Shown: piece by piece, positions 2,400 through 60,172 of the stretch
Position numbering within the stretch: position 1 is the stretch's first letter
Layout: each line of letters starts with the position of its first letter
Virus record (IMG/VR): IMGVR_UViG_3300037424_001593
Span: 1-64,000 of that record
Length of the DNA stretch: 64,000 nucleotides
Direction: 5' to 3' (one strand)
From: a virus
Taxonomy: Duplodnaviria; Caudoviricetes
The notes under the pieces: generated by a model
Database searches by the model: none
Told to the model about the DNA's origin: nothing
What the model saw: only the letters and a program-made list of their open reading frames with translations
Program-made: the position numbers and the translations under genes

Positions 2400-2511
2400 A
2401 AACAAAAGGCGGGGTAGCTTGCGCTGCCTCGCCCTCTGCCCGGAAGAGTCCAAGACTCGTCGCGATTCGCAGATCACAACCCTACACGAGCGGCGCAGCC
2501 GCCGTCAAGAG
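2400..2511 (-). ncRNA. Small-RNA unit copy A (promoter 2508->2479, two-hairpin RNA ~2470->2400)
   Basis: TTGACG-18-TAGGGT; hairpin GAGTC-TTG-GACTC; hairpin GGCGAGGCAGC-GCAA-GCTACCCCGCC followed by TTTTGTTT. Confidence 0.7.
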
Positions 2512-2512
2512 A

Positions 2513-3712
2513 TCACACCTTCGATCGCAGCCCCTGCGGCGCGACCTTCTTCCAGATGACGCCAAGCGCGAGCGCGACACCGGCTGCAGCCCCGACAAGC
2601 GCGCCGTACGCCCAGCCTGCAGCGGGGTAAAGACACTCGACGTTCGTCTCGGGCACGATGAGGTTCACGTACCCACTATCGACTTCGGGCGGCGTTGTCC
2701 CTGCGGGCATCGGCACGTTCGTCACACTCTGCCCGGGCGCCACACCGCTCGAGCTCGAAGGCGTAACGACACCCCCAGATGTTGCGTCGGCCGCGAGCAT
2801 CGCGTTCTGGAACGCTGCGAGGTACCCCGGGATCGTTGATCCCAGCCCGCTGAGCGAGGAGGCCATCGAGCGCAAGCGCGCGCGACGCGAGGAGATCTCG
2901 CCCTCGGAGCTCATCACCGGACCGAACGCCCAGCCGCTCGTCGGAGGGAGCATGCGCGGCGCGTACGTCGGGTCTGCGATCGAGTTGAAGCCCCCTTGCG
3001 CTGCGTTCAGCGCAATGAAACCTCGACGCCGCAGTATCGCGCCTGATGCATCCCGGATCGGCTCGCGCGCGATCTCGATGCCGAGCGCCTTGAAGAGCGT
3101 GATTGGATCACACGTCGTCCCGATATCGTTGAGGTCAGGCCCCGGACGATACGCAGCTTCTCCACTTGAGCCGAAGATCGTCTTGTTGTTCCCTGGAAGC
3201 CAGTCGGGCGCGATGTTGTTGTACGTCGAGCGCTTGAGGTTCCGAAACTCGAAGTGCTCGTGATAGCCCATCGAGTGGAAGATGCCGTTGCGCGAGACGC
3301 CGATGCGCGCGATGTGCTGCCCTGCGGTGACACGATCACCTACAGCGACTCGGTAGTCCGCGAGGTGCGCGTAGAACGAGCACCAAGGTGTGCCGCGCGG
3401 ACCGATGAGTTGTGGGTGCTCGACGAGCACGCAGTTGCCGTAACCCGTCGTCGCGTTCTTCGCGTCTGCAGGCCACACCTCGCAGAAGACGAAGCGCACA
3501 ACGCCGTCCGCGACCGCGAATACGGGCCACGCGTTCGGCGGTTCATCGCCGTTGAAGTCGAGCCCCGCGTGAAACTTCGTGTGCCCTGCGAGCGTGCGCA
3601 GTCCGTAGTCCGAGCCGCAGAACATGCGATCGGCATCGACCGGAGGACACGCGCGGTGTCCGCTTGGGACGCCACGCGGCAAGAGCATGGCTGCGGTCAC
3701 TTCAAACGACAT
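2513..3712 (-). CDS. M23 family peptidoglycan endopeptidase with C-terminal transmembrane anchor
   Basis: HAGLD (HxxxD), VFAVADGVV, YGNCVLVEH, YAHL, HEHFE (HxH); hydrophobic C-terminus + WKK. Confidence 0.9.
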   Translation of the reverse strand: MSFEVTAAMLLPRGVPSGHRACPPVDADRMFCGSDYGLRTLAGHTKFHAGLDFNGDEPPNAWPVFAVADGVVRFVFCEVWPADAKNATTGYGNCVLVEHPQLIGPRGTPWCSFYAHLADYRVAVGDRVTAGQHIARIGVSRNGIFHSMGYHEHFEFRNLKRSTYNNIAPDWLPGNNKTIFGSSGEAAYRPGPDLNDIGTTCDPITLFKALGIEIAREPIRDASGAILRRRGFIALNAAQGGFNSIADPTYAPRMLPPTSGWAFGPVMSSEGEISSRRARLRSMASSLSGLGSTIPGYLAAFQNAMLAADATSGGVVTPSSSSGVAPGQSVTNVPMPAGTTPPEVDSGYVNLIVPETNVECLYPAAGWAYGALVGAAAGVALALGVIWKKVAPQGLRSKV

Positions 3713-3953
3713 CGGTCGCCTCCTCGTCGCTGAGCTCTTCGGCGATACGCCACATCGAAAGCAAGCCCCCGACGACGATCCCTGCGCCGGTCAGCGCCTC
3801 GGCTTGCTTGTGTTTGCCGCGCGCGTGCAGGCCCCACACGGTGAACGCGCCGAGCGTCCCACCGAGCGCGAGCGCGAGCTCGATACGCAACTTCCGAGCT
3901 CGAGGGTTCGAGTCGGGGATGATGCGGCCGAGCTGTTGAATCACGATGGCCAT
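3702..3953 (-). CDS. Small two-TM membrane protein
   Basis: Two hydrophobic segments; in structural operon. Confidence 0.65.
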   Translation of the reverse strand: MAIVIQQLGRIIPDSNPRARKLRIELALALGGTLGAFTVWGLHARGKHKQAEALTGAGIVVGGLLSMWRIAEELSDEEATDVV

Positions 3954-3956
3954 GGG

Positions 3957-4256
3957 CTACTTGCCTCCGACGCGACGCGCTGTAAGTGGTGCAGCGGCAG
4001 CAGCCGCTTCAGTAGGCGCATCTACCTCCGACTTGATTCGCAAACGGCGCTCTATATTCTCTCGCGCGCCTGCACCGGGAACAACCACCGCGTCGATGTC
4101 CCGCTTCAAAAGCACAGCCCACATGCCGTCGATCGTCTCTTCGGGAACGGCGTACGTTGTCGTGCCTGGTTTAGGGTAACCGAGATGATTGTTTACCCTG
4201 TTGATGTAGTTCTGCGCGGCCTGTTGTGTAGGGAAGAAATGGTAGGGCCGAATCAT
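3957..4256 (-). CDS. Hypothetical virion-associated protein
   Basis: ATGA overlap with upstream gene at 4253-4256. Confidence 0.55.
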   Translation of the reverse strand: MIRPYHFFPTQQAAQNYINRVNNHLGYPKPGTTTYAVPEETIDGMWAVLLKRDIDAVVVPGAGARENIERRLRIKSEVDAPTEAAAAAAPLTARRVGGK

Positions 4257-5014
4257 ATCGAATATTCCCCCTTCCAAAAGGCGAGCTCAGCAGCAGCTTG
4301 CGCTGCCGTAAATAGCCCGTCGTAGATTGACACACATGCGACAGCACCTACCCAGTATTGTGAACCCAACGTTTCGCGGCCGCCTAGCTGTATCCGCTGC
4401 GTACGCCAGGCACCCGCGGTACTGCCTGTGGTGTTGACCGTTTCGTCAAGGCCGTTCACTTTCGCTAACGGTAAGGCATTCGCGCCCGCGGTGGCTGGGT
4501 CCCACGATACGACGTTCACAAAAACCGAAGGCGTTGAAGTCTTTAGTTTCTCCGTAGAACCAGTGTAATGAAACGCTGTTCTGTAGGTTCCGGCGCCGTT
4601 GATATAGTGGACGAACCCGCCGTTGCTGACGCTGTAGTATGTAGAACTTTCGAACAAGGACGAAAACGCACCTGCGTTCAAATCTTCGGCGACCAACACA
4701 GTTGTCATGGTCGTGGGGAGCGCAAAATTACCTGCAGTCTGGTAGACCTCGGCGTCTGCGAACTCTATCGTTGGCCGATTGCCGAATGTTGCATCGGTGA
4801 CGTTGAGCAACGCCTGCTTTGCCCCTGTCGCCTGCACGAGCGCGTCAGCAGTGATGATGTTGCCGAGCCCGTCTATCGGGTTGATGCCGGATACATCAAG
4901 CCCGTTGAGCGTGCAGATCTGCGTATTCGTCGAAGCTTGCCACCGACGGTACAGCGAGGTGAAGTTCGGGCCGAGCCTGCGCTGTGCGATCGACGCTGCA
5001 GGAAACTGTCCCAT
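4253..5014 (-). CDS. Putative LamG/concanavalin-A-like receptor-binding domain protein
   Basis: QATGAKQ...GNRPTIEF, IQLGGRE, GAVACVSIYDGLFT pattern typical of phage LamG-like domains. Confidence 0.55.
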   Translation of the reverse strand: MGQFPAASIAQRRLGPNFTSLYRRWQASTNTQICTLNGLDVSGINPIDGLGNIITADALVQATGAKQALLNVTDATFGNRPTIEFADAEVYQTAGNFALPTTMTTVLVAEDLNAGAFSSLFESSTYYSVSNGGFVHYINGAGTYRTAFHYTGSTEKLKTSTPSVFVNVVSWDPATAGANALPLAKVNGLDETVNTTGSTAGAWRTQRIQLGGRETLGSQYWVGAVACVSIYDGLFTAAQAAAELAFWKGEYSI

Positions 5015-5557
5015 TCAGGATACCCAGAAAGCAGTAGCGCTCTGGCGCCAAATCAAATACGAAGGCGCTGTTTGCGGCGTCGTCGGTGACGGCACGAGCG
5101 TTGAGCCGGGCAACGACGTGATGCCCACACCCACGGCGCCACCATTGACGGTCTGTGTAACGCCCACGGCGAGCCCCATACCGAACACGGACGTGTTCGT
5201 TTTGGTAAGCACTCGAGAGACATCGATCGGCCAGGTCGTCAAGTCCGCCGCAGTTGGAAGCGTGAACGTCGCAAGTGCGCCGGTGTGAATATTCGCGATA
5301 GCGTTCTGCGTCGTCCAGTTGATGGCTGCGCCGTTTTCCGCAACGGTGCCGGAACGCTCGAGCGCACCCCACGTTGCACTGCCTGCGGTCGCAAGCGTGC
5401 ACACAAACGTCAGAAGCGCGCCCGTCACGTAGCAAAGATCGCCTACGGCGAGGTTTGCGTTCTGTATCGCCGCGCCGCTGACGTTCGGCAAATCTGCGGG
5501 CGTAGCCACGTTGGGCCACTGCCGAAAATCTGCGAGTGAAGGTCCGCGAACAGACAT
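5015..5557 (-). CDS. Short spike/fibre protein sharing an N-terminal module with 5557-6864
   Basis: ATPADLPNVSG..LAVGDLCYVTG..TFVCT..ATWGA vs ATAADLPNASG..LEVGDTAYVTG..QYVCT..ATWGA. Confidence 0.65.
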   Translation of the reverse strand: MSVRGPSLADFRQWPNVATPADLPNVSGAAIQNANLAVGDLCYVTGALLTFVCTLATAGSATWGALERSGTVAENGAAINWTTQNAIANIHTGALATFTLPTAADLTTWPIDVSRVLTKTNTSVFGMGLAVGVTQTVNGGAVGVGITSLPGSTLVPSPTTPQTAPSYLIWRQSATAFWVS

Positions 5558-8018: not shown

Positions 8019-8019
8019 A

Positions 8020-8421: not shown

Positions 8422-8424
8422 GCT

Positions 8425-8673: not shown

Positions 8674-8676
8674 GCG

Positions 8677-10979: not shown

Positions 10980-10985
10980 GCGCGC

Positions 10986-19470: not shown

Positions 19471-21720
19471 TCAGCGTGTTCGCTTGGCGAACAGCGCAAG
19501 GCCGCCCGCGAGCAGCAGACCGCCGCCGATGAACATCCAGGGGATCGAGCTCGATCCAGGCACCACACTCGGCATGGTCGCCGCCTGCGCGATCGCGTTC
19601 TGCAGATCGAGCGGCGTCGGCATCGGCGTAGGCGTGCTACCGCTCGCCGTAGGCATCGACGAGCTCGTTGAAGTCGTCGCAGCATCCCCGCTCGAGGTGA
19701 TGATGGGCAGCGAGCTCGGGCTCGACGCAAGTGCATTCTGATTGAGCGCCACCGCCGTGATCACAGGATTCGCAACGACACTGCCATCCGCCGCAGGCGC
19801 GAGATTCGGCTGCACCGTCACCGTAGTAACGGCTTGCTGCCCACCCATCGCGAGCTCACCTGTGATGTGTGAGAGCGCCGTGATGAGCGCGGCTGGAAGC
19901 GAGCCTCCGCGGTCGAACGTCGCACACGGCACGTCGCTCAGCGTGCGCAGCACGAGCGGCTGCATCACATCCGCTTTGTTGCCTGCCTTCTTCTTGCGGC
20001 GCATGGCAACAAGCGACGTGATGCCTGTTGCAAGCGTCGTTGCCGCAAGCGTGACACCGAGTGCGATCGGGTTACTGCTCGCGACCGCAGTCACTGCGCC
20101 GCCCACCTGCAGAATCGTCTGCTGTGCAGCCTGCGCTTTCGCATCTACCTGCGCCTGAGCAGCACCGACCTGATACTCTTTCGCCTCGTCGATACTGAGG
20201 TCGATCAAACCGCGTTCGGCCCAGTATGTGACGTGATTGCTGATGTACCAGAGCGTCGCGTTGATCGTGTGGTCCGCGAGACTCGTCTCGAGGATGGAAC
20301 GAATCCAGCCCTCTGCCATACGGGCTGCGCCGTAGATGGACGTGTACGTGTACCACTCGTAGTCGTCCTCGCGGACAACGCGCGCTTCCCAACGACGCCA
20401 CACGAACGTCGTATCTTCGGGATTACTGTGCAGGCACTGTTGATACCAAAAATGCCACGCACCCGAACGCAAATCGTTTTTGATTTGCGTCGTTGTACGG
20501 TCGGTCGGCATCAAGTTCTGTGGGCGAACACGATCAGACTCATTGCCCAGCATGTCGTTTGCGGTCCGCGAATCGTATTGCGGCGCGAAGTCACCCGTGA
20601 GCCAGCCCGTCGGCCCATCTGCGTCGTAGAAACCCATCCACAGAGGGCCCACAAAGAGCTTCGTGACCGTGCGGTCGATGTGCTTGAGCCACGGATCCTT
20701 GGCGACTTCCTTGTCACCGTAGTCCACGGGTTGCGGCGCGCCGCGGAGCTCGTTGAGCACGCTCTGCATGAGCGGCGGGAGCGCGCGATCCGGCAGCAGC
20801 ACACCCGGCTTGCCGTCCGCATCCGTCATCGTCGTCGTCGGGTTCGCGGGCAGCAAAAACTGCGGCTGCACATTCGTCGCGAAGTACGCGAGCGAGACCC
20901 AGCTATAGACGATCGTGAACCAGTCGGCGGTGAGCCGCGATGCGTACTCGCGCTCGACGCTGCCCATCGGCATCGAGAGCCCGCTGTACGCTGGCTTGAC
21001 GACGAGAAGTTGCGCGAGCGCTTGCTGAGCTCGAGCGTAGATGTCCGCGCGGATGCCGACACGCGCCGTGTTCTCTGCACTGCACGGAAGAAGCGCCGAC
21101 GGATACTGGATCATCGCCCAGGTCTGGATGTCGGCCTTGAACTGCTGTGCCCCGTCAGGGAAAAGCTGAGGCTTGACGAGCGTCGCGACGGTGTCGTTGA
21201 AGCTCGCCGTGTACGCATCGACGACACCGCGCGCCTGCACCGTCTGCGCGTCGTACGTGATCTTCGTCACGTCGCGCGTTTCGGTGGGCGCCACGATCGT
21301 CGTCATGAGCTGGTTCGCGTTCGAGATGTTCTGTTGCGCCTGTGCGCTGAACTTCGCCGCGAGATCTGCATCGCCGCTCTTCTGCGCACTCGCAGCAAAC
21401 GCTGCCGCCGCAGCAGCAATCTTCACCTGCTCTTCAGCCTTCTGCTGAATCAACGCTGCTGTAGGCGAGCCTGTTTGCGCAGTCGCTACGACCTGCGCAC
21501 GCGGCGCGCTGTACGTGTTCATCGCCGTACCCGCAGCAATCGCCGCTTGCTGTTGTGCAATCGCTTCTTGCCGCGCCGCTTCTGCAGTCTTCTTCGCTGC
21601 CTCTTTCTTGCGCCGATCGCGCGGAAGACCGAGACCCGCACCAAGCCCGTTCGCACCCTTTGGTGGAACGATGCGCGCTTGCACAAGGTGCGGCTGTGTT
21701 CCGCTGCGGAAGATCCTCAC
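19471..21720 (-). CDS. Large (749 aa) C-terminally anchored virion protein
   Basis: GTG start overlapping upstream stop (GTGA); Ala/Gln-rich helical N-terminus, Ser/Thr/Pro linker, IPWMFIGGGLLLAGGLALFAKRTR. Confidence 0.7.
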   Translation of the reverse strand: MRIFRSGTQPHLVQARIVPPKGANGLGAGLGLPRDRRKKEAAKKTAEAARQEAIAQQQAAIAAGTAMNTYSAPRAQVVATAQTGSPTAALIQQKAEEQVKIAAAAAAFAASAQKSGDADLAAKFSAQAQQNISNANQLMTTIVAPTETRDVTKITYDAQTVQARGVVDAYTASFNDTVATLVKPQLFPDGAQQFKADIQTWAMIQYPSALLPCSAENTARVGIRADIYARAQQALAQLLVVKPAYSGLSMPMGSVEREYASRLTADWFTIVYSWVSLAYFATNVQPQFLLPANPTTTMTDADGKPGVLLPDRALPPLMQSVLNELRGAPQPVDYGDKEVAKDPWLKHIDRTVTKLFVGPLWMGFYDADGPTGWLTGDFAPQYDSRTANDMLGNESDRVRPQNLMPTDRTTTQIKNDLRSGAWHFWYQQCLHSNPEDTTFVWRRWEARVVREDDYEWYTYTSIYGAARMAEGWIRSILETSLADHTINATLWYISNHVTYWAERGLIDLSIDEAKEYQVGAAQAQVDAKAQAAQQTILQVGGAVTAVASSNPIALGVTLAATTLATGITSLVAMRRKKKAGNKADVMQPLVLRTLSDVPCATFDRGGSLPAALITALSHITGELAMGGQQAVTTVTVQPNLAPAADGSVVANPVITAVALNQNALASSPSSLPIITSSGDAATTSTSSSMPTASGSTPTPMPTPLDLQNAIAQAATMPSVVPGSSSIPWMFIGGGLLLAGGLALFAKRTR

Positions 21721-22580
21721 CGAAGCACCACGATCCCGAGCACCGCAGCGACCGCGACGCCCCCAGCAACGTACATCCACGTCTTCGACGGCTCCGCAGC
21801 TGCAGGCGCTGCAGGACCCGCAGACGGCATATCGCCCGGAGGCGTCGTCACCGATGCGCTGTTCGTCGTCGCGCCTACGCGCTGCGTCTGCTGAATCGAC
21901 TGCGTGAGCCCCGACGCGACGTTGCGCCAATCCATCGCAGTCTGACTCGCGGTGCCGACAGTCCCTGTGCGCGCTTCGGTACGCGCGTCGCAGATGTTCG
22001 TGTACAGCGACGTGAGAATGTTCGTCGTCGCGCCCGCGATCTGCAGGTTCTGTCGCGTATCCACAGTGAGACCCTGTGAACCGACGACACCACCGCTCGT
22101 GGTCGTGGTCTCGCTGCGGAAACCGCCGCTCCCGAGCGTAGTGAGAGTGCCCCCAATCGCCCCGAGGATGCCCTGCGCAGCTTGCGCGCCCGTAGATGTG
22201 CATGCGCGCCCGTCGCCGCCGAGACCACGAAAGCCCGAGCGTGAGAGCCCTGTGCGCGCACCATGAGCTGCAGCGAGCGACGCAATGCTCGCACCAACAC
22301 GCGACGGCGCATCGTCGGCGAAACCGCTCGAAGGACGATAGACGCGCGCGCTCGGATCGACACGACCCTCGAAGAGCACGCCAGGTACGGTCTGCGGCGG
22401 AGGCGTCGGCACGTTCTGCCGGCGCAGATCAGTCATCCGCATGTGCGCGGCGTTCGCTACGTTGCGCACAGCCATCGGCATGCGCCCAGCCGCACCATTG
22501 TCTTCGAAGAACGCACGCGGGGGACCGGGACGCGATACCGTGATCGAGAGGTCCGGAGCTCGAGACTTCATGACATGCAT
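21717..22580 (-). CDS. C-terminally anchored membrane protein
   Basis: Start ATG 22580; FRGLGGDG; TWMYVAGGVAVAAVLGIVVLR. Confidence 0.7.
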   Translation of the reverse strand: MHVMKSRAPDLSITVSRPGPPRAFFEDNGAAGRMPMAVRNVANAAHMRMTDLRRQNVPTPPPQTVPGVLFEGRVDPSARVYRPSSGFADDAPSRVGASIASLAAAHGARTGLSRSGFRGLGGDGRACTSTGAQAAQGILGAIGGTLTTLGSGGFRSETTTTSGGVVGSQGLTVDTRQNLQIAGATTNILTSLYTNICDARTEARTGTVGTASQTAMDWRNVASGLTQSIQQTQRVGATTNSASVTTPPGDMPSAGPAAPAAAEPSKTWMYVAGGVAVAAVLGIVVLR

Positions 22581-23634: not shown

Positions 23635-23743
23635 TTGCGGCCGGGGCTGCGCCCCGGTTACCGTTCGGGTGTTCGATCTTCGGATCGTGCACACCCAACT
23701 GGAACAGGGCGAGGAGGGCAAACCCACCCCGCCTTTTCCTTTT
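23635..23743 (+). ncRNA. Small-RNA unit copy D
   Basis: TTGCGG-18-TACCGT; hairpin GGGTGT..CGATC-TTCG-GATCG..ACACCC; GGGCGAGGAGGG-CAAA-CCCACCCCGCC + TTTTCCTTTT. Confidence 0.75.
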
Positions 23744-24393
23744 AGAACGACCCTGACCTTAGCCGTTGTGCGATCGCTGCGTCGCGCTTCCCCGTTCGCC
23801 GCTTGTTCCGGTGCACCTCTAAAACCGCCTCTATAACCTCGCGACCACGGCGCTCGTACGCTCGCTGCACGCGGGCAACAATCGCAGAGTGCTCCTCGTC
23901 GGTAACCTCATGCCAAATCCGCTCGAGCGTTGCCCGCCCAGCAAGGATCTCATTGACGAGGTGCAGCACACGCTGGGTCACACGTCCTCCTTCGTAGCCT
24001 CACCGGCTGTGAGCTCCGCCGCCCGCTCCTCGCACAAATGCACGCGTGCTGCGCGAAGGTCCCGCAGACACGCCTTTGCAGTGTGCTCAGCATCGAGCTC
24101 CAGATCGAAGAGCTCTTTGGTCGTGCCGCAGATGATACATTTCGCTTCGCTCATGCTTCTCTCCAGTCGAGCTGCTCGACAGCGTTCAAAAACGCCATCC
24201 AGGCGTCGAGCTCGTCGTAGCCTTCCACAACGAGCTCTGTGTCGATGATCGCAATCTCGCAGAGGATGCCATCTTTCGGTCCGTGACGAAACTGCACGTC
24301 GAACCCGGGCACCATCATGCGGCGCACCTCGACAGCGACTTCCTCGAGCGACTCCATGCTCCGGATGCTCTCCATTCGCGCGTAAGAAGTCAA
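23742..24393 (-). other. Three small hypothetical ORFs (23742-23981, 23978-24154, 24151-~24393)
   Basis: ATGA overlaps; no domains recognised. Confidence 0.55.
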
Positions 24394-24409: not shown

Positions 24410-24528
24410 AAAAGGCAAAGGCCCCAGGGAGATTGCTCTCTCGTGGGGTCCTCTGTGGGTTCGTCCTAAGACGCATACCGCTTTGGTGGATCCCAAGGCT
24501 ACCCCAGCGGGGCGCAGCCCCGCAAGAG
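24410..24528 (-). ncRNA. Small-RNA unit copy E
   Basis: TTGCGG-18-TAGCCT; hairpin CGTC-TTAG-GACG; CCCCACGAGAGA-GCAA-TCTCCCTGGGG + CCTTTGCCTTTT. Confidence 0.7.
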
Positions 24529-24530
24529 CC

Positions 24531-24570
24531 AAAAAGACAAAGCCCTCGCACGGTTTAGACGTGCGAGGGC
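24531..24570 (-). terminator. Rho-independent terminator
   Basis: 11-bp stem GCCCTCGCACG/CGTGCGAGGGC + TTTGTCTTTTT on minus strand. Confidence 0.75.
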
Positions 24571-26635: not shown

Positions 26636-26768
26636 GCAAATACGCGGCATACGCGCCGTGGATGTCTTGACGGCCAGAGACATGAGGGACTAGCCTCGCG
26701 ATCATGCGAGTGCCTGCACGTTGCGCAACGGGAGTATGCGCGCGAATCCTTGTCCTCGCGGAGCGTGC

Positions 26769-28085
26769 ATGAGTGAGTTCGTCCCGTACGCCGAAGGTCC
26801 GTTGAGCTGGATCCCCGGTGATGTCCAAGCTGCATTCCCGCAATCGGGACCAATCCACCGCTACATGCACTGGGCCACGCAGTGCACAGATACGCCGCCG
26901 CTGTTTCACCTCGGTGCCATGCTCCCGACGTTCGCGACACGCCTTGCGTGGACAGGCGTGCGTTTGCACAACGACCACCCGTTGCGTCTTTGGTGTCTTC
27001 TCGTCGCGGGCGCTGGTTTCGGTAAGAGCACGCCGCTCAAAATGGCTCAGCGCTTCGTCGTCGATCACCTCGAGCAGACGAAAGATACGCCCCACGAGCA
27101 ACCGCTCGTTCGCTTCGAAGGCACGGCGCAGGGGCTCTTCTCGGTTTTGCAGGGCACATACATTCCAGAGCTCGAGCAAGAGATCGCGCTCGTGCACACC
27201 GACGAGGCGGCACCGATCCTCACGCAACGCTATCAAGACAGCGCGGGGAAGTTCTTCTGCCAACTCTACGACGGCGAGCGCATGGAACGGCAGGTACTGC
27301 ACCTTCAGCGCGCAGTCGCGAAGGGGGAATCGAAGAAGCCGGTACTGCACCGCCCTACGATTTCCGCAGCTTTTGCGTGCACGCTCGACGAGTTCGAGAC
27401 CACGGCGTCGAAAAACGTGGTCGGAAACGGACTTTTATCGCGTTTCCTCTCGTTTCACGCCATGCCGACGAAGTTGATGTATCGACAACTCGCACATGAA
27501 TCAGGACGTACAGCGGTTTTGGATGCGTGGAACGAGTGGTTTGGTGGGCTGCGCGGAACATTGCTTTTAGACCCTAAAACACAGCTTGTGAGCTCTGTCG
27601 GCGCAGAAAACATGCTTCAAACACGTGTTTTTGACCCGCTCGCTGCGCGTTTTGCCAAAAATCCGAGCGATGCGCTCTTCGCAATCGCACGTCGTGGCAT
27701 GGCGCACATCAACATAGTCGCTGGCCTATATGCCTTGAATCGTTTGAGTTTCGAGATCTCTGCGACCGATATGCTCCAAGCCATCGAACTCTTCGAGCAC
27801 ACGCTCACGTTCAATCGTGAGCTTGTTCCGCGTATGGGTAAGGGTGAGGCATTCCAGCGCCACGACGCCCTCTTGCAGGCTGCGAAGGCTGGTGGTGCTA
27901 GTGGGGTAGCCAAGAGCGACTTCTACCGCCTTCTGAAGGGTGTCTCGAAGCCGGAACTGGACATGCTGCTGGACACCCTCGTTGACTCTGAAGAGCTTGT
28001 GCTGGAAACCGTTCGCGGTGGGCGGGGTAGACCCTCACAACGGTTCTATTTACCTGAACATCAACCCAGTAAAACAGCCAACTGA
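26769..28085 (+). CDS. DUF3987/YfjI-like P-loop ATPase (replication helicase-type) with C-terminal winged helix
   Basis: Start ATG 26769; LVAGAGFGKST, VHTDEA, QLYDG, GLLSRF; GGRGRPSQRF. Confidence 0.7.
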   Translation: MSEFVPYAEGPLSWIPGDVQAAFPQSGPIHRYMHWATQCTDTPPLFHLGAMLPTFATRLAWTGVRLHNDHPLRLWCLLVAGAGFGKSTPLKMAQRFVVDHLEQTKDTPHEQPLVRFEGTAQGLFSVLQGTYIPELEQEIALVHTDEAAPILTQRYQDSAGKFFCQLYDGERMERQVLHLQRAVAKGESKKPVLHRPTISAAFACTLDEFETTASKNVVGNGLLSRFLSFHAMPTKLMYRQLAHESGRTAVLDAWNEWFGGLRGTLLLDPKTQLVSSVGAENMLQTRVFDPLAARFAKNPSDALFAIARRGMAHINIVAGLYALNRLSFEISATDMLQAIELFEHTLTFNRELVPRMGKGEAFQRHDALLQAAKAGGASGVAKSDFYRLLKGVSKPELDMLLDTLVDSEELVLETVRGGRGRPSQRFYLPEHQPSKTAN

Positions 28086-29010
28086 CCCCCTTTAGTTCTT
28101 ATGTACAAGGCCCAAAAACGGGCCTTTTTCTTTTTATTTCGCGTAGTTATTTACTTTCTTCTGGTTTTGGGGAGGGGGTGCCTCGTGGGGGTGTATACGT
28201 GCGCTCACCGTTCGGGGAGGGGGTGTTACACGCGCAAACACGGGTTCGCGGCTTGGGTCGAATGTGGTGGGTTGTAATAAAAGAAAAAATAGAAATAACT
28301 CTCTACATATACATAGACTACCTTCCCTACGCGGCGATTCGTGTTTGACTTTTCCTCTAAAAACAAGACCCAGTAAGGAAATAATGACGCTGTGGCGTGT
28401 ATTTTTATGACATCAATGCAACCGTGTTTGTGTACTGGTACGTGTAAGTGTTTTGGGGGCGAATGTACGCGCCGCGCCGCAGCGTGACTACAGGGGTCAA
28501 GGGGGTGATCGCGAGCCGTGCGCGGGCGCGTGTGCGAGCGCGCGTACGCGTGAGAGCATGTGCCATGCCAACGTGCTGCAACGTTGACAAAAGTGACAAC
28601 CTTACCGGTCGCCGTTGTAAAGTTTTGCCGACAAGGTCAGCACTTGACGTATTACCTTTTGCTGCGGTACGGTCATACCGTCGCATGATGATCGTCTCCA
28701 CTACGCGCGTGGGTGCCGGAGCCAGTCGTTCCCGTGAGGAGCGCGTGACATGTTCGTGCTGTGGTCGCTCTCGAGCGGGGCATACGAACGAGGTCGCTGC
28801 GCTGTTACCGTACATCCGCTCGAGCCTACGCACACGGGCTGCTAAAAATGCGGGCGCTCATGGGCGACCCGGCTCTGGCCGTCCGGTGTGCGGCGCACGT
28901 TCCGGCATCCTCTCGCGGCGTGGAGAAAATACGCAACATACGTCGTAGTTATACGGTGTACACCTGGTCTGCGTATGGCACGTGGTCAGGTCAATCTCAG
29001 GTTTTTCGGG
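28086..29010. other. AT-rich, mostly non-coding region; candidate replication origin/control region
   Basis: T-tracts and A-tracts in inverted arrangement; GGGGAGGGGGTG at 28169 and 28214. Confidence 0.5.
28108..28135 (+). terminator. Rho-independent terminator
   Basis: AGGCCC-AAAAAC-GGGCCT + TTTTCTTTTT. Confidence 0.7.
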
Positions 29011-45085: not shown

Positions 45086-45435
45086 CCCCGTTTCAGCTAG
45101 ACCCAGAAGATCGCAGCGACATGCTCAACAAAATGCGCGAAGAGCTCGCGTGGCTGCCTGAGACGATGACACGCGAAGACGCAATCGAGCTCCTAATCCA
45201 GTATTCGACCGTCGTCTCCGCAATCACCGTGGGCATGGGCTTCCAAACGATGGCGCAGTGCGTGCTCGGGGCGAAGGCTGCAGATGTGCCCGCGGCAGAC
45301 GCGCTCGCAGCGCTCGTAGGCACAAGCGAGGAGGTGCTGGCGGAGATCAAAACCGAGGTCGAGCGAGTAGCCGCGGATCACGTCGCATGGATCGCCGAGC
45401 GCAAAGCCGCGCTCGAAGCGGCGAAGGCGCTCTGA
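45082..45435 (+). CDS. Helical hypothetical protein
   Basis: Overlapping start/stop. Confidence 0.55.
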   Translation: MTPFQLDPEDRSDMLNKMREELAWLPETMTREDAIELLIQYSTVVSAITVGMGFQTMAQCVLGAKAADVPAADALAALVGTSEEVLAEIKTEVERVAADHVAWIAERKAALEAAKAL

Positions 45436-46355
45436 TGTCCACAGTGAAGTACTTCGCGTTCGATCTCGAGACGAGCGGCCTCGATCCGGAGCGTGGCGCT
45501 GAGATCCTCAGCTTCGCGTTCATCCTCCTCGGCGACAAGCTCGAGGTGCTCGAGGAGGGCGAGGCGTTCATCCTCCCGACGCGTCCCGTCGCGTCGGAAG
45601 CTGCGAAGGTGAACGGCTACACGCGCGAGCTCTGGGAGGAACGCGGCGCGATGCCGCTCGCAGAGTTCAAGGACGTGCTCGTAGGGCTGTTGCGCGAGTA
45701 CAAGTGCAAGCGCGTGAAGCCGCTCGGACACAACGTTGCGTTCGACCTCGGGTTCTTGCACTACGAAGGCCGCAAGGACCCAGGCTTTGGGCTCGTGCTG
45801 CGTGACGCGCTCAACTTCAAGAGTACGTGCACGCTCAACCTCGCGTCCGAGATCGACGAAGCGTGGCAGGTCACCGCGCCCTCGTACAAGCTCGGCGAGC
45901 TCACGCGGCGCTATGGTATCACGCTCGACAACGCGCACGATGCGCTCGCGGACATCCGCGCGACTGTGGCCCTACATCGTGCGCTGCTACAACAGATCAA
46001 ACGCGGAGAAGCGCCGCCTGCACCACCCCCGGCGTCGTTCCTCGAGCTCCGTGGCGGCGCGTGGTGCTATCGCGTCGGGCGACACAAGGGCAAGACGCTC
46101 GAGGAGGCCGGGTACAGTTACGCGACATGGGCGTACAACGAAGTCGATCTGCCGAGCGATGAGCGTCGAGCTCTCGGCGCGCAGATCCAACGCTTCAAGG
46201 ATGCGAAGACGAACGCGTCTGTGCGTGTCGGCGGCAAGCCCTTCGCATGCCCGTGCGGCTGCGCGGTCTTCACGAAGTCGGGGCCGCAGTACGAGTGCAA
46301 TAGCTGCCGAGCGCTCTACCACGGGACGCCGGACGCCGGTCGATCGACCCCTTGA
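45435..46355 (+). CDS. DEDDh (DnaQ-like) 3'-5' exonuclease with C-terminal zinc ribbon
   Basis: FDLETSG, GHNVAFD, AHDALAD; GRHKGKTL; CPCGC..YECNSC. Confidence 0.9.
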   Translation: MSTVKYFAFDLETSGLDPERGAEILSFAFILLGDKLEVLEEGEAFILPTRPVASEAAKVNGYTRELWEERGAMPLAEFKDVLVGLLREYKCKRVKPLGHNVAFDLGFLHYEGRKDPGFGLVLRDALNFKSTCTLNLASEIDEAWQVTAPSYKLGELTRRYGITLDNAHDALADIRATVALHRALLQQIKRGEAPPAPPPASFLELRGGAWCYRVGRHKGKTLEEAGYSYATWAYNEVDLPSDERRALGAQIQRFKDAKTNASVRVGGKPFACPCGCAVFTKSGPQYECNSCRALYHGTPDAGRSTP

Positions 46356-46474
46356 AAGACGAAGGGCGGGAGTAGATTGCTCTACCGTCCGCCTCCCCGC
46401 TGCTCGTGATTTTCCGAAGAAAACGCAAGACTTGCTGGAGACCCCATAGTGGCCCAAGCGGGCGCAGCCCGCAA
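46352..46474 (-). ncRNA. Small-RNA unit copy F
   Basis: TTGCGG-17-CACTAT; hairpin TTTTC-TTCG-GAAAA; GGCGGACGGTAGA-GCAA-TCTACTCCCGCC + CTTCGTCTTTC. Confidence 0.7.
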
Positions 46475-46523
46475 GCCCCTTTCCTTACGTGCATCGTACG
46501 TGCTACACGTGGTGTCAGCGCTG

Positions 46524-46811
46524 ATGCCTCGACTGAGTTTCCACGCAACGCCCGCGTTAGCACGCGAGATCAAGAAACGAGTCCACCCGCCTGACACCAA
46601 CATGTCAGACGTGATACGTGGCTTGATCGAAGCCGGGCTTGGGCAGAGTCCAGACGAGATCGCCGCGACGCAGGTTGCGATGCGCGCACGGGGCACGCAG
46701 CAACTCATCGTCAACAAGCTCTACAAGGCGCTGCACAAGGCGATACACGAAGCCTCGGACGCGGTGCTGAGCGAGTTCGTGACGCTCGACGAGCCTGACG
46801 AGGAAGGATGA
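46524..46811 (+). CDS. Ribbon-helix-helix (Arc/CopG-like) DNA-binding protein
   Basis: Start ATG 46524; RLSFHA strand, PALAREIKKRV helix, MSDVIRGLIEAGL helix. Confidence 0.6.
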   Translation: MPRLSFHATPALAREIKKRVHPPDTNMSDVIRGLIEAGLGQSPDEIAATQVAMRARGTQQLIVNKLYKALHKAIHEASDAVLSEFVTLDEPDEEG

Positions 46812-47518
46812 CGGCGCCCTCAGACGGCGACGCGCCCGCAAAGGGCGATGGGTACCGGCGAAAGTCGCATGCGGGGCGCTATCTGCGCGCGCAGTGCGGA
46901 GGGCTCACGCCAGCACAAGTCCGCGCGTGGCTCACGCAGTTCGATCCGGTCGTCAAGCTCGTCGTGCGAAATCTGCATCGTAAGAACCCACACGCAACGC
47001 TCGAGCTCGAGGACCTGCTCTCGGTAGGGCAGATGGCGGTGCTCGAGGCCTGTCAGACCTTCAAAGAGGGCGCAGGCGGAACGCTCCGCACGTGGGTCGG
47101 CAACGTGATCCGCTGGCGCGTCGCCGCTGCGATCGAAGAGGTAAGCGAGACCTGGGTCCTCAACCTCGACAACTTTGGCCCTGCGTACGCAAGCAAGCAA
47201 CACGCAAAATGGGCGCCAAGAGTGCGTAGATACGATGCACCGGATGCTGCTGCGGATGGGCACGACGGTGCGGAACTGTACTACGTACAGGTGTCTCGGG
47301 ACGGCGGGCGTCCCGATCCATTTGCACAACTTGAGGCACGGGAAGAGCTCGCTGATTTCATAGACCGTATTGATCGCGGCTTCGATACGTCAGGGCAGGC
47401 CGCGGCGTTCTCCGCCGATCGGCTCGCGAGCGTGGAAGAAGCGTTGCTTCCACTGCAAGCGCCCTTTCCACCCAAAGTGGTGAAGCGCCCGCAGACTCGA
47501 CTCAAACGCGTGGGGTAG
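46808..47518 (+). CDS. Phage sigma-70-like factor (region 2 present, region 4 not evident)
   Basis: LELEDLLSVGQMAVLEACQTF..GGTLRTWVGNVIRWRV; DPFAQLEAREELADFI then no HTH. Confidence 0.75.
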   Translation: MTAPSDGDAPAKGDGYRRKSHAGRYLRAQCGGLTPAQVRAWLTQFDPVVKLVVRNLHRKNPHATLELEDLLSVGQMAVLEACQTFKEGAGGTLRTWVGNVIRWRVAAAIEEVSETWVLNLDNFGPAYASKQHAKWAPRVRRYDAPDAAADGHDGAELYYVQVSRDGGRPDPFAQLEAREELADFIDRIDRGFDTSGQAAAFSADRLASVEEALLPLQAPFPPKVVKRPQTRLKRVG

Positions 47519-50669: not shown

Positions 50670-50673
50670 AAAA

Positions 50674-51312: not shown

Positions 51313-51337
51313 CGCCGCAGCACGAAAGTACGCTGTG

Positions 51338-51378: not shown

Positions 51379-51461
51379 ATCGCGTGCACTCTTCCTTTCT
51401 GTTGAAGCTCCTGTTATGTACCGTCGTCAGAGCATCACATCAGCTCAGGGCAGGAGCGACA

Positions 51462-54892: not shown

Positions 54893-54915
54893 TTCAGCAC
54901 AACTGTACCAAGCCA

Positions 54916-54927
54916 GGCGGTATAAGA
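54916..54927 (+). promoter_or_regulatory. Late-promoter-like GGCGGTATAAGA
   Basis: GGTATAAGA core, 18 nt before ATG 54946. Confidence 0.6.
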
Positions 54928-54945
54928 TCAAGGGAGCGTGCAACC

Positions 54946-55749: not shown

Positions 55750-56132
55750 GGCTCGCTTTCGCGGTCGCCGCATGTCTTGCGCTCGCGCCTTGCGGCTTCC
55801 AATGCCCTGAACGCACGGACGCGTACGCAGATGAAGTTGCGGCCGTGCGTCGCGTCTGGGTCGCGCCGCTACCTCCAGATACGTGCGGATCCCCGCACGT
55901 GTCGCTACGCACGCTGCCGTGCGGCGAAGGTTGTCTGTACGCGTACCACTACATGACAGACATCGTCGTGCGCGATGATCTCGACGAAAGCACTACGCGC
56001 GCGGCGGTTCGCCACGAGACGGTGCACTGGCTTGCGTGGTGTACGGGCTATCAACCGAGCGGCGACGCGGGACACTCGATGCCCGAGCTCTGGGGCGCGG
56101 GTGGAGTGCTCGAGCGATCCGAAAGCCCGTAG
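55746..56132 (+). CDS. Putative lipoprotein zincin metallopeptidase
   Basis: Signal ..ALAPC; VRHETVHW (HExxH). Confidence 0.65.
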   Translation: MRLAFAVAACLALAPCGFQCPERTDAYADEVAAVRRVWVAPLPPDTCGSPHVSLRTLPCGEGCLYAYHYMTDIVVRDDLDESTTRAAVRHETVHWLAWCTGYQPSGDAGHSMPELWGAGGVLERSESP

Positions 56133-56266
56133 ATGAGCTCGAGCTCGCTGAGCGCGTCTGTTGCGGGCCCAAGGAGAATGATGCCTCGACCGCTGCGCAT
56201 CAGCGCTTTGAGCCGCCACAGCGGCTTCTTGCGGCGTTCGTTCCGTGCACGTTTCTTGTGGTTCAT
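56051..56266 (-). CDS. Small protein with MNHKKRAR N-terminus
   Basis: Shared N-terminus with 1269 and 57392 ORFs. Confidence 0.55.
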   Translation of the reverse strand: MNHKKRARNERRKKPLWRLKALMRSGRGIILLGPATDALSELELIYGLSDRSSTPPAPQSSGIECPASPLG

Positions 56267-56273
56267 TGAAGCG

Positions 56274-56389
56274 CTCTTGACGGCGGCTGCGCCGCTGGGT
56301 TAGGGTTGGGATCTACGCAAAAGAGCCGTTCGATCCGAACGACCACGCAGGGCGGAGGGGAGCAATCCTCACCGCTCTTCGTCTTTCTT
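56274..56389 (+). ncRNA. Small-RNA unit copy B
   Basis: TTGACG-18-TAGGGT (37/41 identical to copy A promoter); CGTTCG-ATC-CGAACG; GGGCGGAGGGGA-GCAA-TCCTCACCGCTC + TTCGTCTTTCTT. Confidence 0.75.
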
Positions 56390-56503
56390 GACGACGGGCC
56401 GGCACCGTCGGCAGTAGAAAACGCCGTGCGACGTAGAACCATCCGTATGCTCAGCGACGCGATGGCACTCCACACATTTTCTTCTGCGTGGCAGGGGCAT
56501 CAT
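56369..56503 (-). CDS. 44-aa zinc-finger microprotein
   Basis: MMPLPRRRKCVECH...FYCRRCRPVVKKDEER; ATGA overlap with exonuclease stop. Confidence 0.5.
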   Translation of the reverse strand: MMPLPRRRKCVECHRVAEHTDGSTSHGVFYCRRCRPVVKKDEER

Positions 56504-57084
56504 CTGCTCGGCCACCCGATCGCCCGCGCAATCTTGAAGAAGAGCTCGCCCTGATGCCGAGCATCTTCCACTGCGATGTGCGTGTGCGGCGGCAGATCCA
56601 CACGCAACGCGTTGAGCGGCTCGTGCCGCCCCGAGTTCTGAAATCCGAGCCCGCCGCACGCGAACGAGTCGAGGTCGATCACCTTGAGCCCGCGCTTCGA
56701 CGTGAAGTGGAAGGGATTCTCGAGCCCTGTAGCGCGGAATGCCCAGTCGATCCACGGGTAGTCGAAGATCGCGGGGTCTGCAAGAAACACAGGCGCGTCG
56801 CACGGCAAGCACAGGCTCTTGATGAAGCGCTCGAAGAGTTGCATCGACGCGTGCAGGTCAAGCTGATCGCGCTCGAGCGCACGTGCGGCTGAAGGCTGCG
56901 TAGCCCACCACTTTGAGGTGTCCGCGTCGCACGTGTATAGCGACGATTGCGCGATGTTGAGCTCGATCGCGTCGAGCTCGAACCCGTGTACGTCGTACGC
57001 CGCAGCGCCGATGCTGAGGAGGTGGTGGATGCCGGGACGTGGGCCTGCGGTCTCGACGTCCACGGAGAAGATGATGTCGCTCAT
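56500..57084 (-). CDS. DEDDh 3'-5' exonuclease (Rv2179c/DUF5051-like)
   Basis: SVDVETAGP, IFDYPWI, HIAVEDA. Confidence 0.8.
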   Translation of the reverse strand: MSDIIFSVDVETAGPRPGIHHLLSIGAAAYDVHGFELDAIELNIAQSSLYTCDADTSKWWATQPSAARALERDQLDLHASMQLFERFIKSLCLPCDAPVFLADPAIFDYPWIDWAFRATGLENPFHFTSKRGLKVIDLDSFACGGLGFQNSGRHEPLNALRVDLPPHTHIAVEDARHQGELFFKIARAIGWPSR

Positions 57085-57098
57085 GTGCTCTAGCCTTT

Positions 57099-60042
57099 CT
57101 AGTATGGATCGTGAAGCATGCGCGTGAGGAGCGCGCCAAACGCCTCGGTCGCTTGTCGTCCTTGCGCGTGCAACGCGTTTCGTGTTCGTGCTTCTCTGCG
57201 TGCATCACTCCAGTGGCGCGAGCGTCTGCGTGGATTGCGTAAGTCCGGGTAGAGAGCATCGAAGAACACGCGGTTGCCGTCCGCGCTCTCCCACATCGTC
57301 CCGTACGGCGTGCGCATGATGGGGGTGCCGAAAACCTCGCGCCAGTGTTGTGTCTTGCGTCGTTCGTTTCGCGCTCGCTTCTTGTGGTTCACGTCTTGAC
57401 CCAGAGCGCGTTGTTGAACTGCTCGTACTGCACTTCGTCGCATTCGATTACGCGGAAGCCTGTACCGGACGAGTAGCTGTGTTTGCTCGGGTGTTGATGC
57501 GTGAGATACGTAACGAGCAAACAACCCTCGTCGCGGCGCTCCACGCGGACGACGTCCACAACGCGAACATACAAGCACTGTCCGTACGGTCTGTGCTCTG
57601 CCTCGATACGCGCGGCGTCTTCGCGGGTCATTTTGTGCCGCGGAATGTCCGCACCATACCCGCGTTCCGTGCCGAGGTAGATCAGTGGCCCCTGTCGCAG
57701 GGGCACATCCGCATCGAACGTGCATCGCGACCACCGCGCGGGCTCATCTTCGGGTTTACGCACGTACGCGTCGATTCCTTCTTTTGCCATCGTCTCCTCC
57801 GTTCGTGTGTTGTTGGGTCCCGTTGGTCCTGGAAGCGCTGGGTGTCGTGGTTCACACCTGCGTAGCGCGTGCTTAAACGTGAGCGCCTCGATCGCCTCCG
57901 CAGGAAAGTCGAGCGGCAGGGACTCGCACACAAGCGTCTCGCCAGACAGCACGGTGAGCTTCGGTCGCAGCTCGAAGTCCAGCGCGAGTCGGGCCATGAG
58001 CGCGGCGCTCAAACCTTCGGGGTCTACGATGAGGATCGGCTTGTCCACTACAGGCCTCGTTTCTTTGCTTGCTTCGCAATCTCATCGAGGAAGGACTCAA
58101 CGTTGCGCTTCCTGCGCGCTTCTATCGCATCCAGTATTTGCTGCGCGGCGTCGTGTGTGGTTTCACGCGCGGGGATCGCACGGTCGGCAGCGAGGCACCG
58201 ATGGCACATCGCGCGACTTAGCCCTGCGTAGTGTGGACACGCCTTACTCATTCTCGCCTGCCTTCCATTCCCCACGCCACCTCAGCGATGTGCTCGAGCT
58301 CGTCTTCGATGTCGGCTTGCGCAGCGAACAGGATGATCTCGACATCCGTCTTCCACGCGTACTTCGTGACGCCCGCACGCGCTGAGAGTTGCGCGCTGCG
58401 CATAAGACTCTCGCGCACCAGGCGCGTCACCTCGTCGTTCTTCCTCATACCTTAGAGCGTACACTTTGCGCCGGCGTTTCGAGGCGTTCGACCTGCGCAC
58501 GTGCGTCGTTCTCCGGAGCAATACGCACTTTCGTCGCGGGTGGTGGTTCACCTACTGCGTTGTATTCTCGCAAAATCGCGAGCACCGCGTCACGCTCGAG
58601 CTCACTGCGTTTTTGTTCGGCAACCTCTACTTTGTGGAGTAGATCGAAGGCTTCACTGTGGGTGTACGCGACGCGGAAACTCGTGAAGAGTAACAGTGCG
58701 AGCAACGCAAACTGCGTCACTCCGTGTGCGTGTGCGTTGTCGGCGTCGAACCACATAGCTAGGCCGATCCAGCTCGCTGCAACGCTTGCGACGCGCAGAA
58801 GCGACATACGAAAACGACTCTGCACTTGGCGCAGCGTCATCCCGACACCTCTTGCTGGGCTGCCAAATACTGCGCGAGAAGCGCGGCATATCGCGCCGCT
58901 TGTTCTTCGAACGCATCTCGCGCGGGCGCGGTTGCTCGTTCGTACTGGCGCGAGGGAAGAAATCCGTGCTGCAGTTTCGCTTCTGTGAAGACTTGAAGCG
59001 CGCGTTCACGCGCAAGCAACGCGTTCAAGAGCTCGCGCTCGAGAGCGGTGCATGTGTGCGTGCCATACGTGCGCGCGCGCAACTCGTCGGGCGTGGGACG
59101 GTATTCAGACATCACCCCATCACCTTCTGCCCGCGCTTCGGCTCTTGCCACGGCTTCGCGATATTGCGCTTTACCGGACGATGCGCTGTGCCGCCAGGAT
59201 GCGTGACGACGGCGCCGTTCCGCTTCGCGCTCTGCTCGCGCTCCATCTGGCGATACGCCTGCTTGAGCTGCCGACGTGAAGGATTCACGATCACAGCCTT
59301 CTCTTCAGGCGTGAGGTCGCTGGCCGTGCCGGACGTAGCGCCCGTAGGGATCGTAGGTGCGCTGATACTTTTCACGTGCTCTTCTCCGTTTTAGCGCGGA
59401 TGCGAGACGCTTCCGCGAACATGTGATCGAGATCAAGACGCTGCGCCTGTGAGGACCAGTACCCGGGCGAGACGCAGGTCCACACCTGCCCGAGCGGGGA
59501 CATCGCGTAGTCGCAGTCTGGCGTGCTCCAGAACACCCAGCCGCGCACGGTGATCGGGACGCGGCCACGTGCGTCGAGCTCACTCTGCTCGAGCTTGAGG
59601 CGCTGGTATTCCGCGTCGAGCACGGCGCGTTCCGCGCCCTGACGCCGACGCTCGAGGATGCGCAGCACGATGCCGAGGACGAGCAGCACGAGCGCGACGA
59701 ATGAGATGCCTGCGCTCACGGCTCGGCCTTCGCTTTGAGGGCGCGCACAGCGTCGATGAGCTCCGCGCGTGCCCAGTAGAGTGTGTTGTCCTCGGCGCCG
59801 GTGGGGTGCGTGATGCTTGCGTGCGCGGTCGTCGCGCGTTCGAACGTCAGAGCGCTCTGGAGCACAGCGAAGATCTCGGGCGTCACGCGTCCGAAGCCTG
59901 TGCCGTCGCAGTTCTCGCAGCGCTCTACGCGCGTGTCGTGCTCTCCACCGCAGACGATGTCGCTGAAGACCTGCCCCTCGCCGCCACATGACGCGCAGAG
60001 CCCTATAGCGAGCGGTGCGATGTAACCGATCGACATCTTCAC
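57099..60042 (-). other. Cluster of small leftward hypothetical ORFs (incl. 57099-57392 with VNHKKRAR start; several TM or CxxC proteins)
   Basis: Chained overlaps; no strong domains. Confidence 0.55.
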
Positions 60043-60058
60043 GTGCCCTTTCGCGGCA

Positions 60059-60172
60059 TAAAGCTGGAGCGGGGTAGGATTGGGTACCTCCTCCGCCTTC
60101 GCCCGGTATTCGTAATGCTACGAATGCCTTCCTTGAGCCCCAAAGGTAGGGCCGCAGGCCCGCCGCTGTCAA
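60059..60172 (-). ncRNA. Small-RNA unit copy C
   Basis: TTGACA-18-TACCTT; ATTCGTA-GCAT-TACGAAT; GGCGGAGGAGG-TACCCAAT-CCTACCCCGCT + CCAGCTTT. Confidence 0.65.

Follow-up and report, generated by a model that had tools for sequence, protein, structure and literature searches.

Repeated promoter–hairpin–terminator units in an uncultured phage as candidate cassettes for conditional read-through

The window analysed here is a stretch of 64,000 nucleotides (nt), the first 64 kb of the IMG/VR record IMGVR_UViG_3300037424_001593 (Duplodnaviria; Caudoviricetes), which is a single contig of 76,963 bp with direct terminal repeats; the assembly unit is circular, 76,866 bp long, and represents an uncultured phage of ∼77 kb. 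Dispersed over this genome are eight copies of a compact unit in which a sigma70-type promoter, a hairpin (H0) usually lying in the promoter spacer, a variable hairpin (H1) and a bulged, GC-rich hairpin (H2) with a U-rich tail follow one another. Our leading reading, which we hold tentatively, is that each unit could be a cassette whose promoter-proximal terminator, serving as an attenuator or insulator, is read through conditionally, ahead of early genes transcribed by the host RNA polymerase. Seen directly are how the units are built, that H0 covaries, that related phages keep the units in position and orientation, and that no second promoter lies behind them.

Six of the eight copies lie in the window and had been reported in a first-pass annotation, whose coordinates and features for them were all borne out but whose count was too low. 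A pattern scan of the whole genome added unit G at 71487(+) and unit H at 76458(+), the gene downstream of H crossing the circle junction into the start of the window. The six window copies are listed below.

2399-2511, minus strand: unit A; -35 box 2508-2503, H0 2502-2490 with loop TGC, -10 box 2484-2479, predicted start ∼2472, H2 2434-2408 with a GCAA loop, tail UUUUGUUUAU
23635-23742, plus strand: unit D; -35 box 23635-23640, H0 23641-23657 with a stem of 7 bp, -10 box 23659-23664, H1 with a UUCG loop, H2 23707-23733, tail UUUUCCUUUU
24411-24528, minus strand: unit E; -35 box 24525-24520, H0 24523-24507 with a stem of 7 bp, -10 box 24501-24496, H2 24451-24420 with a GCAA loop, tail UUUGCCUUUUC, start of the next gene at 24393 or 24358
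46356-46475, minus strand: unit F; -35 box 46474-46469, H0 46472-46458, -10 box CACTAT 46451-46446, H1 with a UUCG loop, H2 46393-46365 with a GCAA loop, tail CUUCGUCUUUC
56274-56389, plus strand: unit B; -35 box 56277-56282, H0 56283-56295, -10 box 56301-56306, H2 56350-56377 with a GCAA loop, tail CUUCGUCUUUC
60059-60172, minus strand: unit C; -35 box 60172-60167, H0 60161-60149 (GGGCC-TGC-GGCCC), -10 box 60148-60143, H2 60097-60068, weak tail, zinc-finger gene 59716-60042(-) 17 nt downstream

The sigma70-like promoter that had been described for each copy, with a -35 box, a spacer of 17-18 nt and a -10 box, is present in all six, down to the CACTAT of unit F. The -35 box of the window copies reads TTGACG, TTGACA or TTGCGG, and the -10 box of those other than F reads TAGGGT, TAGGGT, TAGCCT, TACCGT or TACCTT. 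The TTG of the -35 box and A2 and T6 of the -10 box are constant in all eight units, which in letters makes the promoter one of the sigma70/sigmaA type, and the two boxes are 18 nt apart in this phage (17 nt in F). H1 is variable and has UUCG-type loops, which in D and F are the C-UUCG-G loops first noticed there; likewise, the loops of H2 had been read correctly as GCAA in A, B, E and F and as CAA-containing in C and D. In the six window copies H2 folds with -12.5 to -16.7 kcal/mol (z of -1.8 to -4.1 against shuffles). When H2 was examined as an intrinsic terminator, its energies ranged from -12.5 to -23 kcal/mol and the tails held 5-8 U per 10-11 nt in seven of the eight units. The U-tract of unit C is poor (CCAGCUUUAUG), and the U-rich tail that had been ascribed to all copies stands for the others only. 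H2 is thus built as an intrinsic terminator is, from a GC-rich hairpin and a U-rich tract, weakly so in C, and its build and tail style match those of the plain operon-end terminators of the phage; a simple terminator scanner overlooks the H2s owing to their 1x1 internal loops. Counted from a start 6-7 nt past the -10 box, the predicted RNA is 72-86 nt long in 11 of 12 units and 72-84 nt in the six window copies, in keeping with the earlier estimate of ∼70-95 nt, so that the distance from promoter to terminator is nearly constant. No unit has an Rfam match, either at the gathering threshold or at E<=5, and the only match is the transfer-messenger RNA (tmRNA) of the phage; the earlier failure to recognise a family is borne out.

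The terminator sequence shared by A and D and the tail shared by B and F (CTTCGTCTTTC) were both found as first reported. The promoter halves of A and B (2470-2512(-) and 56274-56314(+)) are ∼90% identical over ∼41 nt, with 4 differences, although they are inverted and 54 kb apart. The terminator halves pair otherwise than the promoters, namely A with D, B with F and E with H. This mosaic of promoter and terminator halves suggests exchange between units, and the repeats are a possible substrate for inversion.

The lineage is rare, and its capsid-like protein and M23 peptidase each have few homologues. There was no match for a 3.7-kb piece in a blastn search of phage records, for PolA among viral contigs or for the capsid alignment among genome contigs. 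The A/B promoter pattern had no match among viral contigs; a looser pattern had none that was viral and two chance matches in metagenome contigs. The relatives that were read are G001 (69.5 kb), G002 (52.9 kb), the ENA contig R3 (72 kb) and the Logan contig R4 (23 kb). This phage and G001 are syntenic, their proteins being 30-57% identical. The cassette is present in all four relatives, in at least 13 units altogether and at least eight in G001, where the spacer between the -35 and -10 boxes is 17 nt. Three sites recur. The site directly after the M23 peptidase gene is occupied in four genomes (A here, G001 50850(-), R3 and R4). The site before a leftward operon is occupied in three (C here, G001 35436(-), R3 L026 12710(-)), and the DnaJ-type zinc-finger gene of that operon is the first gene here and the second open reading frame (ORF) in G001. 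The third is an antisense site just before the sigma-factor operon, again in three genomes (F here, R3 L026 2408(-), G001 26339(-)). Unit D also has a counterpart, in G001 at +6501, which precedes a same-strand ORF of 63 amino acids (aa) with a third-position GC content (GC3) near 97%. D stands back to back with the late-promoter motif GGGGTATAAGA (23621-23611, minus strand) and its counterpart with the late-type motif GGGGTATAGAAGA (L011 6458-6470(-)); the late-type motif lies 10-30 nt from the -35 box of the D-type unit, on the opposite strand, and this divergent pairing of early-type with late-type promoter is conserved. At equivalent sites the position, orientation, promoter boxes, H0, hairpin architecture and tail are kept, and the letters of H1 and of the linker are not. 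An unconserved RNA body within a kept architecture is what would be expected of a structural leader. A loose descriptor of promoter, hairpin and terminator finds about two combinations in each random genome, as compared with the eight units here, whose shared features are far more specific. Since, moreover, the architecture stands at the same genome positions in three related phages, a chance origin of the units is excluded.

H0 escaped the first-pass annotation, which described a two-hairpin unit; its 5' and 3' hairpins are present, and this third hairpin is found in every unit as well. H0 has a GC stem, 4-7 bp long in the eight units of this phage, and a 3-nt loop. Because MAFFT and RNAalifold, applied to whole units, misaligned the floating H0 and recovered H2 alone, H0 was aligned anchored on its loop, over 21 units from four genomes. 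Across these units the stems are 4-9 bp long; of the 105 cells formed by the inner five pairs, 104 are paired, and pair 8/14, which is never mismatched, is CG in 12 units and GC in 9. Covariation scores 0.489, as against 0.181 ± 0.037 in shuffles, none of 500 of which reached it, and all slid controls stay at or below 0.21. Between R4 and G001 a compensatory double change (G-C to A-T) is found in H0 amid ∼190 near-identical nt. H0 is under selection.

The loop of H0 on the sense strand is T-N-C in all 21 units (TGC in 19, TAC in one and TTC in one), so that the template strand reads C-GNA-G, with loops GCA, GTA and GAA closed by C:G, in every one of them. To our knowledge, such mini-hairpins have so far been reported as signals for N4-type polymerases and primases and not for host-polymerase promoters. 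Mini-hairpins of the form GCGNAGC/CCGNAGG are very stable, and their stability depends on the C:G closing pair (PMC3201870). Promoters of the N4 virion polymerase and primase signals both have the GNA mini-hairpin (PMC13037366), and the early promoters of LUZ7 are of a similar hairpin type (PMC9163698). In our units the centre of H0 floats 7-15 nt from the -10 box and lies past it in two units, whereas the spacing of the -35 and -10 boxes is fixed. As, in addition, no phage RNA polymerase was found, H0 is taken here to be a conserved module, specific to one strand, that accompanies a host-type promoter; any role of it is putative.

The genes and terminators that matter for the context of the units are the following.

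2005-2385, minus strand: phage tmRNA with the tag ANDNAEPILAQAA, the first product 3' of unit A, followed by the gene 1990-1478(-)
59716-60042, minus strand: first gene of the unit C operon, a small CxxCxGxG, DnaJ-type zinc-finger protein
45258-46355, plus strand: exonuclease gene
46808-47518, plus strand: sigma-like gene
56500-57084, minus strand: exoribonuclease-like gene, whose 3' end faces unit B
14441-14407: plain operon-end terminator
24570-24542: plain operon-end terminator; as 24542-24570 on the minus strand, the canonical intrinsic terminator of the gene before E, 14 nt upstream of the -35 box of E
28107-28126: plain operon-end terminator

Five of the eight units (A, C, E, G and H) stand directly before genes on the same strand. 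Such genes start ∼10-90 nt past the tail in A, C, E and H, in U1-U4 of G001 and at the A-position units of R3 and R4, and likewise in U5. A ribosome-binding site and a start codon follow within 17-40 nt in C, E and H, and G is followed by ∼340 nt of non-coding sequence and then by the next ORF and a recombinase region. In no unit is there a late-promoter motif or another promoter between H2 and the following gene, so that these genes would have to be reached by read-through of H2. The separate strong terminator before E further indicates that E is a fresh start of transcription and not the end of the previous gene. Unit A begins 5 nt past the stop codon of the M23 peptidase gene and ends 15 nt short of the tmRNA, which is probably co-transcribed from it with the gene 1478-1990(-), a 170-aa protein (phrog_2293) with a strong ribosome-binding site ∼15 nt past the tmRNA. 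In G001, R3 and R4 the position of the tmRNA holds a small protein gene instead, and the tmRNA is absent.

Units B and F face Pfam-supported genes on the opposite strand, F lying antisense between the exonuclease gene and the operon with the sigma-like gene, and their short RNAs would be fully complementary to the intergenic part of the mRNA of the oncoming operon. We also considered H2 as a bidirectional terminator for oncoming operons, and rejected this since the opposite-strand tails are not U-rich; the exception is unit B, in which the complement of H1 together with CUUUUGCGUA resembles a minus-strand terminator.

We propose that the cassette would work as follows. It combines a promoter (TTGAC(N) or TTGCGG, 17-18 nt, a TAGGNT-like box), H0 as a GC hairpin in or beside the promoter that could form the C-GNA-G mini-hairpin in template DNA, a leader of ∼75-85 nt with a stable H1, and then H2 with its U-tract as an intrinsic terminator. 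By default the polymerase would make the short leader RNA and stop. Polymerase arriving from an upstream operon would stop at the same terminator, and the cassette would in this way insulate each operon. The genes behind a cassette, among them the tmRNA and the operons of zinc-finger and Arg-rich small proteins, would depend on read-through, which is probably conditional and could come about by antitermination through a phage factor or a cis element. Where a cassette opposes an operon, as F does the sigma-factor operon and B an operon end, the antisense RNA or the promoter itself may damp or delimit the operon. The conserved place of F before the sigma-factor operon suggests a part in the control of the early-to-late switch. 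The sigma70-type promoters are presumably those of the early phase of the phage.

Several observations weigh against this proposal. Behind units B, D and F this genome has no gene on the same strand, and for these units a short RNA or the promoter itself must be the point. H0 is separable from the core promoter and is not a core promoter element, as it lies past the -10 box or is kept without a good -35 box in some units of the relatives (G001 L012 11061-11200 and L011 12100-12260; R3 L026 6301-6450), and three units of G001 have a poor -35 box. No conserved alternative (anti-terminator) fold was found in the leaders. The Q-family antiterminator PF06530 has no match in the genome, while control genomes were positive, and the zinc-finger protein 59716-60042 matches the 'Q-like' phrog_6060 (E = 8.6e-4 and 0.022) in the zinc motif only; as a regulator, this protein behind unit C is a weak lead. 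No homologues of the four small Arg-rich proteins of the phage were detected in G001, which has units. Finally, it is from sequence that active promoters, termination and conditional read-through are predicted, and H0 has no more than a putative role.

A related possibility, which we consider rather doubtful, is that the promoter is controlled by structure. The mini-hairpin of the template strand, within or next to host-type promoters and kept by compensatory changes throughout the phage lineage, might gate the host polymerase or load a read-through factor and make the promoter self-insulating. The hairpin or cruciform would then extrude with supercoiling or promoter melting, and a phage factor would let only those polymerases that had started there pass H2, foreign traffic being stopped.

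It is unlikely that the terminated RNAs of ∼75-85 nt are functional in themselves, either in trans as sponges or decoys of a host protein that binds RNA, for example an Hfq- or ProQ-like terminator binder, or in cis as antisense RNAs. Their constant length and two very stable hairpins would fit such a function, as would B and F, which face opposite-strand genes so that only a short or antisense RNA is possible, the antisense position of F being kept in three phages; the four small Arg-rich proteins could be RNA partners. Lambda oop, P22 sar and lambda paQ are small terminated antisense RNAs of phages, and F, which opposes the sigma-factor operon, and B, which opposes an operon end, resemble them in having a promoter and a terminator that would give an RNA of ∼70-80 nt against a regulatory operon. 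The same cassette, however, also stands here in sense orientation before genes and carries the extra hairpin H0. Nor does anything favour the decoy, sponge or guide-like roles put forward in the first-pass annotation: H1 and the linker are unconserved in equivalent units, so that they show no common trans target or protein-binding sequence, most units stand directly before same-strand genes with no other promoter between, and no Rfam family is matched. The GCAA and UUCG loops, the most stable that terminators have, do not speak for such roles either, as GNRA, GCAA, GAAA, GUAA and UUCG loops are generic stabilisers, common on stable terminators; for the same reason the loops of H2 are not evidence for a boxB-like site. 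That the parts are ordinary and unrelated, with the H2s only ending flanking genes and the promoter-like boxes inactive or coincidental, we regard as very unlikely. The H2 of A would indeed also stop the upstream late operon, and B lies at the junction of two converging blocks. Yet nothing in the letters is conserved better than the promoter boxes and their spacing over the eight units here and at least 13 in relatives, E has a separate terminator upstream, C, H, U2 and U3 open operons with nothing upstream to terminate, and the whole unit keeps its position and orientation in relatives. The first-pass annotation had named 3' hairpins that only end flanking genes, beside inactive promoters, as a result that would refute it, and the conservation of the promoter elements speaks against this case.

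The remaining explanations start from H0. A small chance may be given to H0 as a real start signal, that is, a hairpin promoter of the N4 type read by an RNA polymerase of the phage or its virion; it might act by itself or overlap the sigma70 promoter so that the two are used at different times. The likeness to the promoters of N4 and LUZ7 lies in a template hairpin upstream of transcription units, with a covarying stem of 4-9 bp and a 3-nt loop that is G-N-A, with C:G as the closing pair, in every one of the 21 units (PMC13037366, PMC9163698); the N4 promoter hairpin GCGGAGC itself belongs to the GCGNAGC/CCGNAGG class (PMC13037366, PMC3201870), the LUZ7 early promoters are similar (PMC9163698), and some G001 units keep H0 despite a poor -35 box. 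In contrast to these promoters, H0 is embedded in a sigma70-type promoter and its centre floats, past TAnnnT in two units, against fixed -35 and -10 boxes; 19 of 21 units have C as the middle base of the loop, whereas N4 requires a purine. As for a phage RNA polymerase, for which detection is weak, PF00940 has no match in the genome, though its control was silent, no long ORF contains a DxDGD loop, a 643-aa ORF gave no meaningful match in the RNA polymerase hunt, and a 910-aa ORF, without a PDB or Atlas match, looks like an Ala/Gln-rich, membrane-anchored virion protein. Least probable of all is that the three-hairpin unit is a single-strand DNA initiation signal for primase or primosome loading, as in the G4 origin or RSF1010 ssiA, with the promoter likeness secondary. 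GNA mini-hairpins do mark such sites, that of G4 consisting of three hairpins over ∼140 nt (PMC13037366), and the phage has a DUF3987 helicase-like gene and no primase domain recognised anywhere in its replication module. But the units are oriented as the genes are, irrespective of the side on which they lie of the candidate origin, an AT-rich stretch at 28.1-28.6 kb that has A(-), D(+) and E(-) to one side and F(-), B(+), C(-), G(+) and H(+) to the other, and the conserved -35 and -10 letters and the U-tracts would have no role in priming.

Returning to the cassette with conditional read-through, its logic would be the one known from three systems: lambda PR'-tR' with Q, N/nut and HK022 put. 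At the lambdoid late promoter region PR'-qut-tR' a short '6S' transcript is made by default, and the block is released through Q antitermination. The units resemble this arrangement in having what would be a constitutive sigma70 promoter with a terminator within ∼100-200 nt, a short default RNA, which here is read from the sequence anatomy, genes that need read-through and a special DNA element between the -35 and -10 boxes. They differ from it in that there are at least eight per genome, in both orientations, and in that the element in the spacer is a covarying hairpin and not a protein-binding sequence; moreover, no Q homologue was found in this phage and no -10-like pause element is evident. 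HK022 put is a two-hairpin RNA of ∼70 nt, and both put and nut are hairpin RNA elements transcribed just past early promoters, as H1 and H2 would be. An Arg-rich peptide binds the boxB of lambda, which is a hairpin with a GNRA fold (PMC12027372, PMC2724277); four small proteins of this phage have Arg-rich N-termini. The GNRA-capped hairpin of the units, by contrast, carries a U-tract and so looks like a terminator and not like a nut site, and the units have no sequence or Rfam similarity to put or nut. With boxA reading CGCUCUUA or UGCUCUUUA (PMC2724277), B (CGCUCUUC) and G (UGCUCUUUC) are the only units with letters of this kind, and a reading of the tails as boxA in general was rejected as it fits these two only.

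The four Arg-rich proteins are encoded as follows.

56051-56266, minus strand: ARM1, with the Arg-rich N-terminus MNHKKRARNERRKKPLW
57099-57392, minus strand: ARM2, a paralogue of ARM1
1269-1505, plus strand: ARM3, a paralogue of ARM1
60271-60465, plus strand: ARM4, 64 aa with the N-terminal KRARRRDRRLAKQ; its gene opens the rightward block and is divergent from unit C

ARM1-3 share the pattern MN[HY]KKRAR..RR followed by W at residue 17. The RRRDRRLAKQ of ARM4 resembles the lambda N motif RRRERRAEKQ, a likeness of letters and not a statistical homology. ARM1-4 have no Pfam or PDB match, and as antitermination factors they are leads only.

The genes of the phage are arranged in a leftward block from ∼26.6 to 2.5 kb, a rightward block from 28.4 to 56.1 kb, a leftward block from 60.0 to 56.05 kb and a rightward block from 60.3 to 76.4 kb, and encode, among others, a UDG-PolA fusion, an SNF2 helicase, an M23 peptidase, exonucleases, ThyX, a weak sigma-like protein and a complete tmRNA. 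Only two runs, both of sediment-metagenome DNA, are listed as containing the phage, and no RNA run is; the contigs of the two have no variants in units F, B and C. Two more promoters of the form TTGACG-N18-TAnnnT, at 26667 and 28644, have no hairpins. The first of them, a plain TTGACG-N18-TAGCCT promoter, precedes the DUF3987 P-loop (helicase-like) gene in the stretch 26667-28085(+), which is conserved in G001. Between the terminator 28107-28126 and the plain promoter at 28644, the stretch 28090-28640 is AT-rich and gene-free and has GGGGAGGGGGTG repeats; it is a candidate replication origin or control region. The 910-aa ORF mentioned above (19471-22203(-)) is conserved in G001 with 35% identity, and its product is Ala/Gln-rich with a C-terminal membrane anchor. 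The first ∼170 residues of this ORF are Arg/His/Cys-rich and non-coding in look, and the true start of the protein probably lies later.

If the cassettes work as we propose, this lineage, made up of large phages for which phage databases have no recognised relatives, would run its early programme through a repeated, modular promoter with a built-in terminator. The single PR'-tR' or nut arrangement of lambdoid phages would then be generalised to a whole genome, including the control of a tmRNA and of a sigma factor. A mini-hairpin within a sigma70-type promoter would be an unusual element, and its strand specificity and covariation make it testable. The cassettes are also compact natural parts, each consisting of a promoter, a 5' stabiliser and a terminator, and may be of use in GC-rich hosts.

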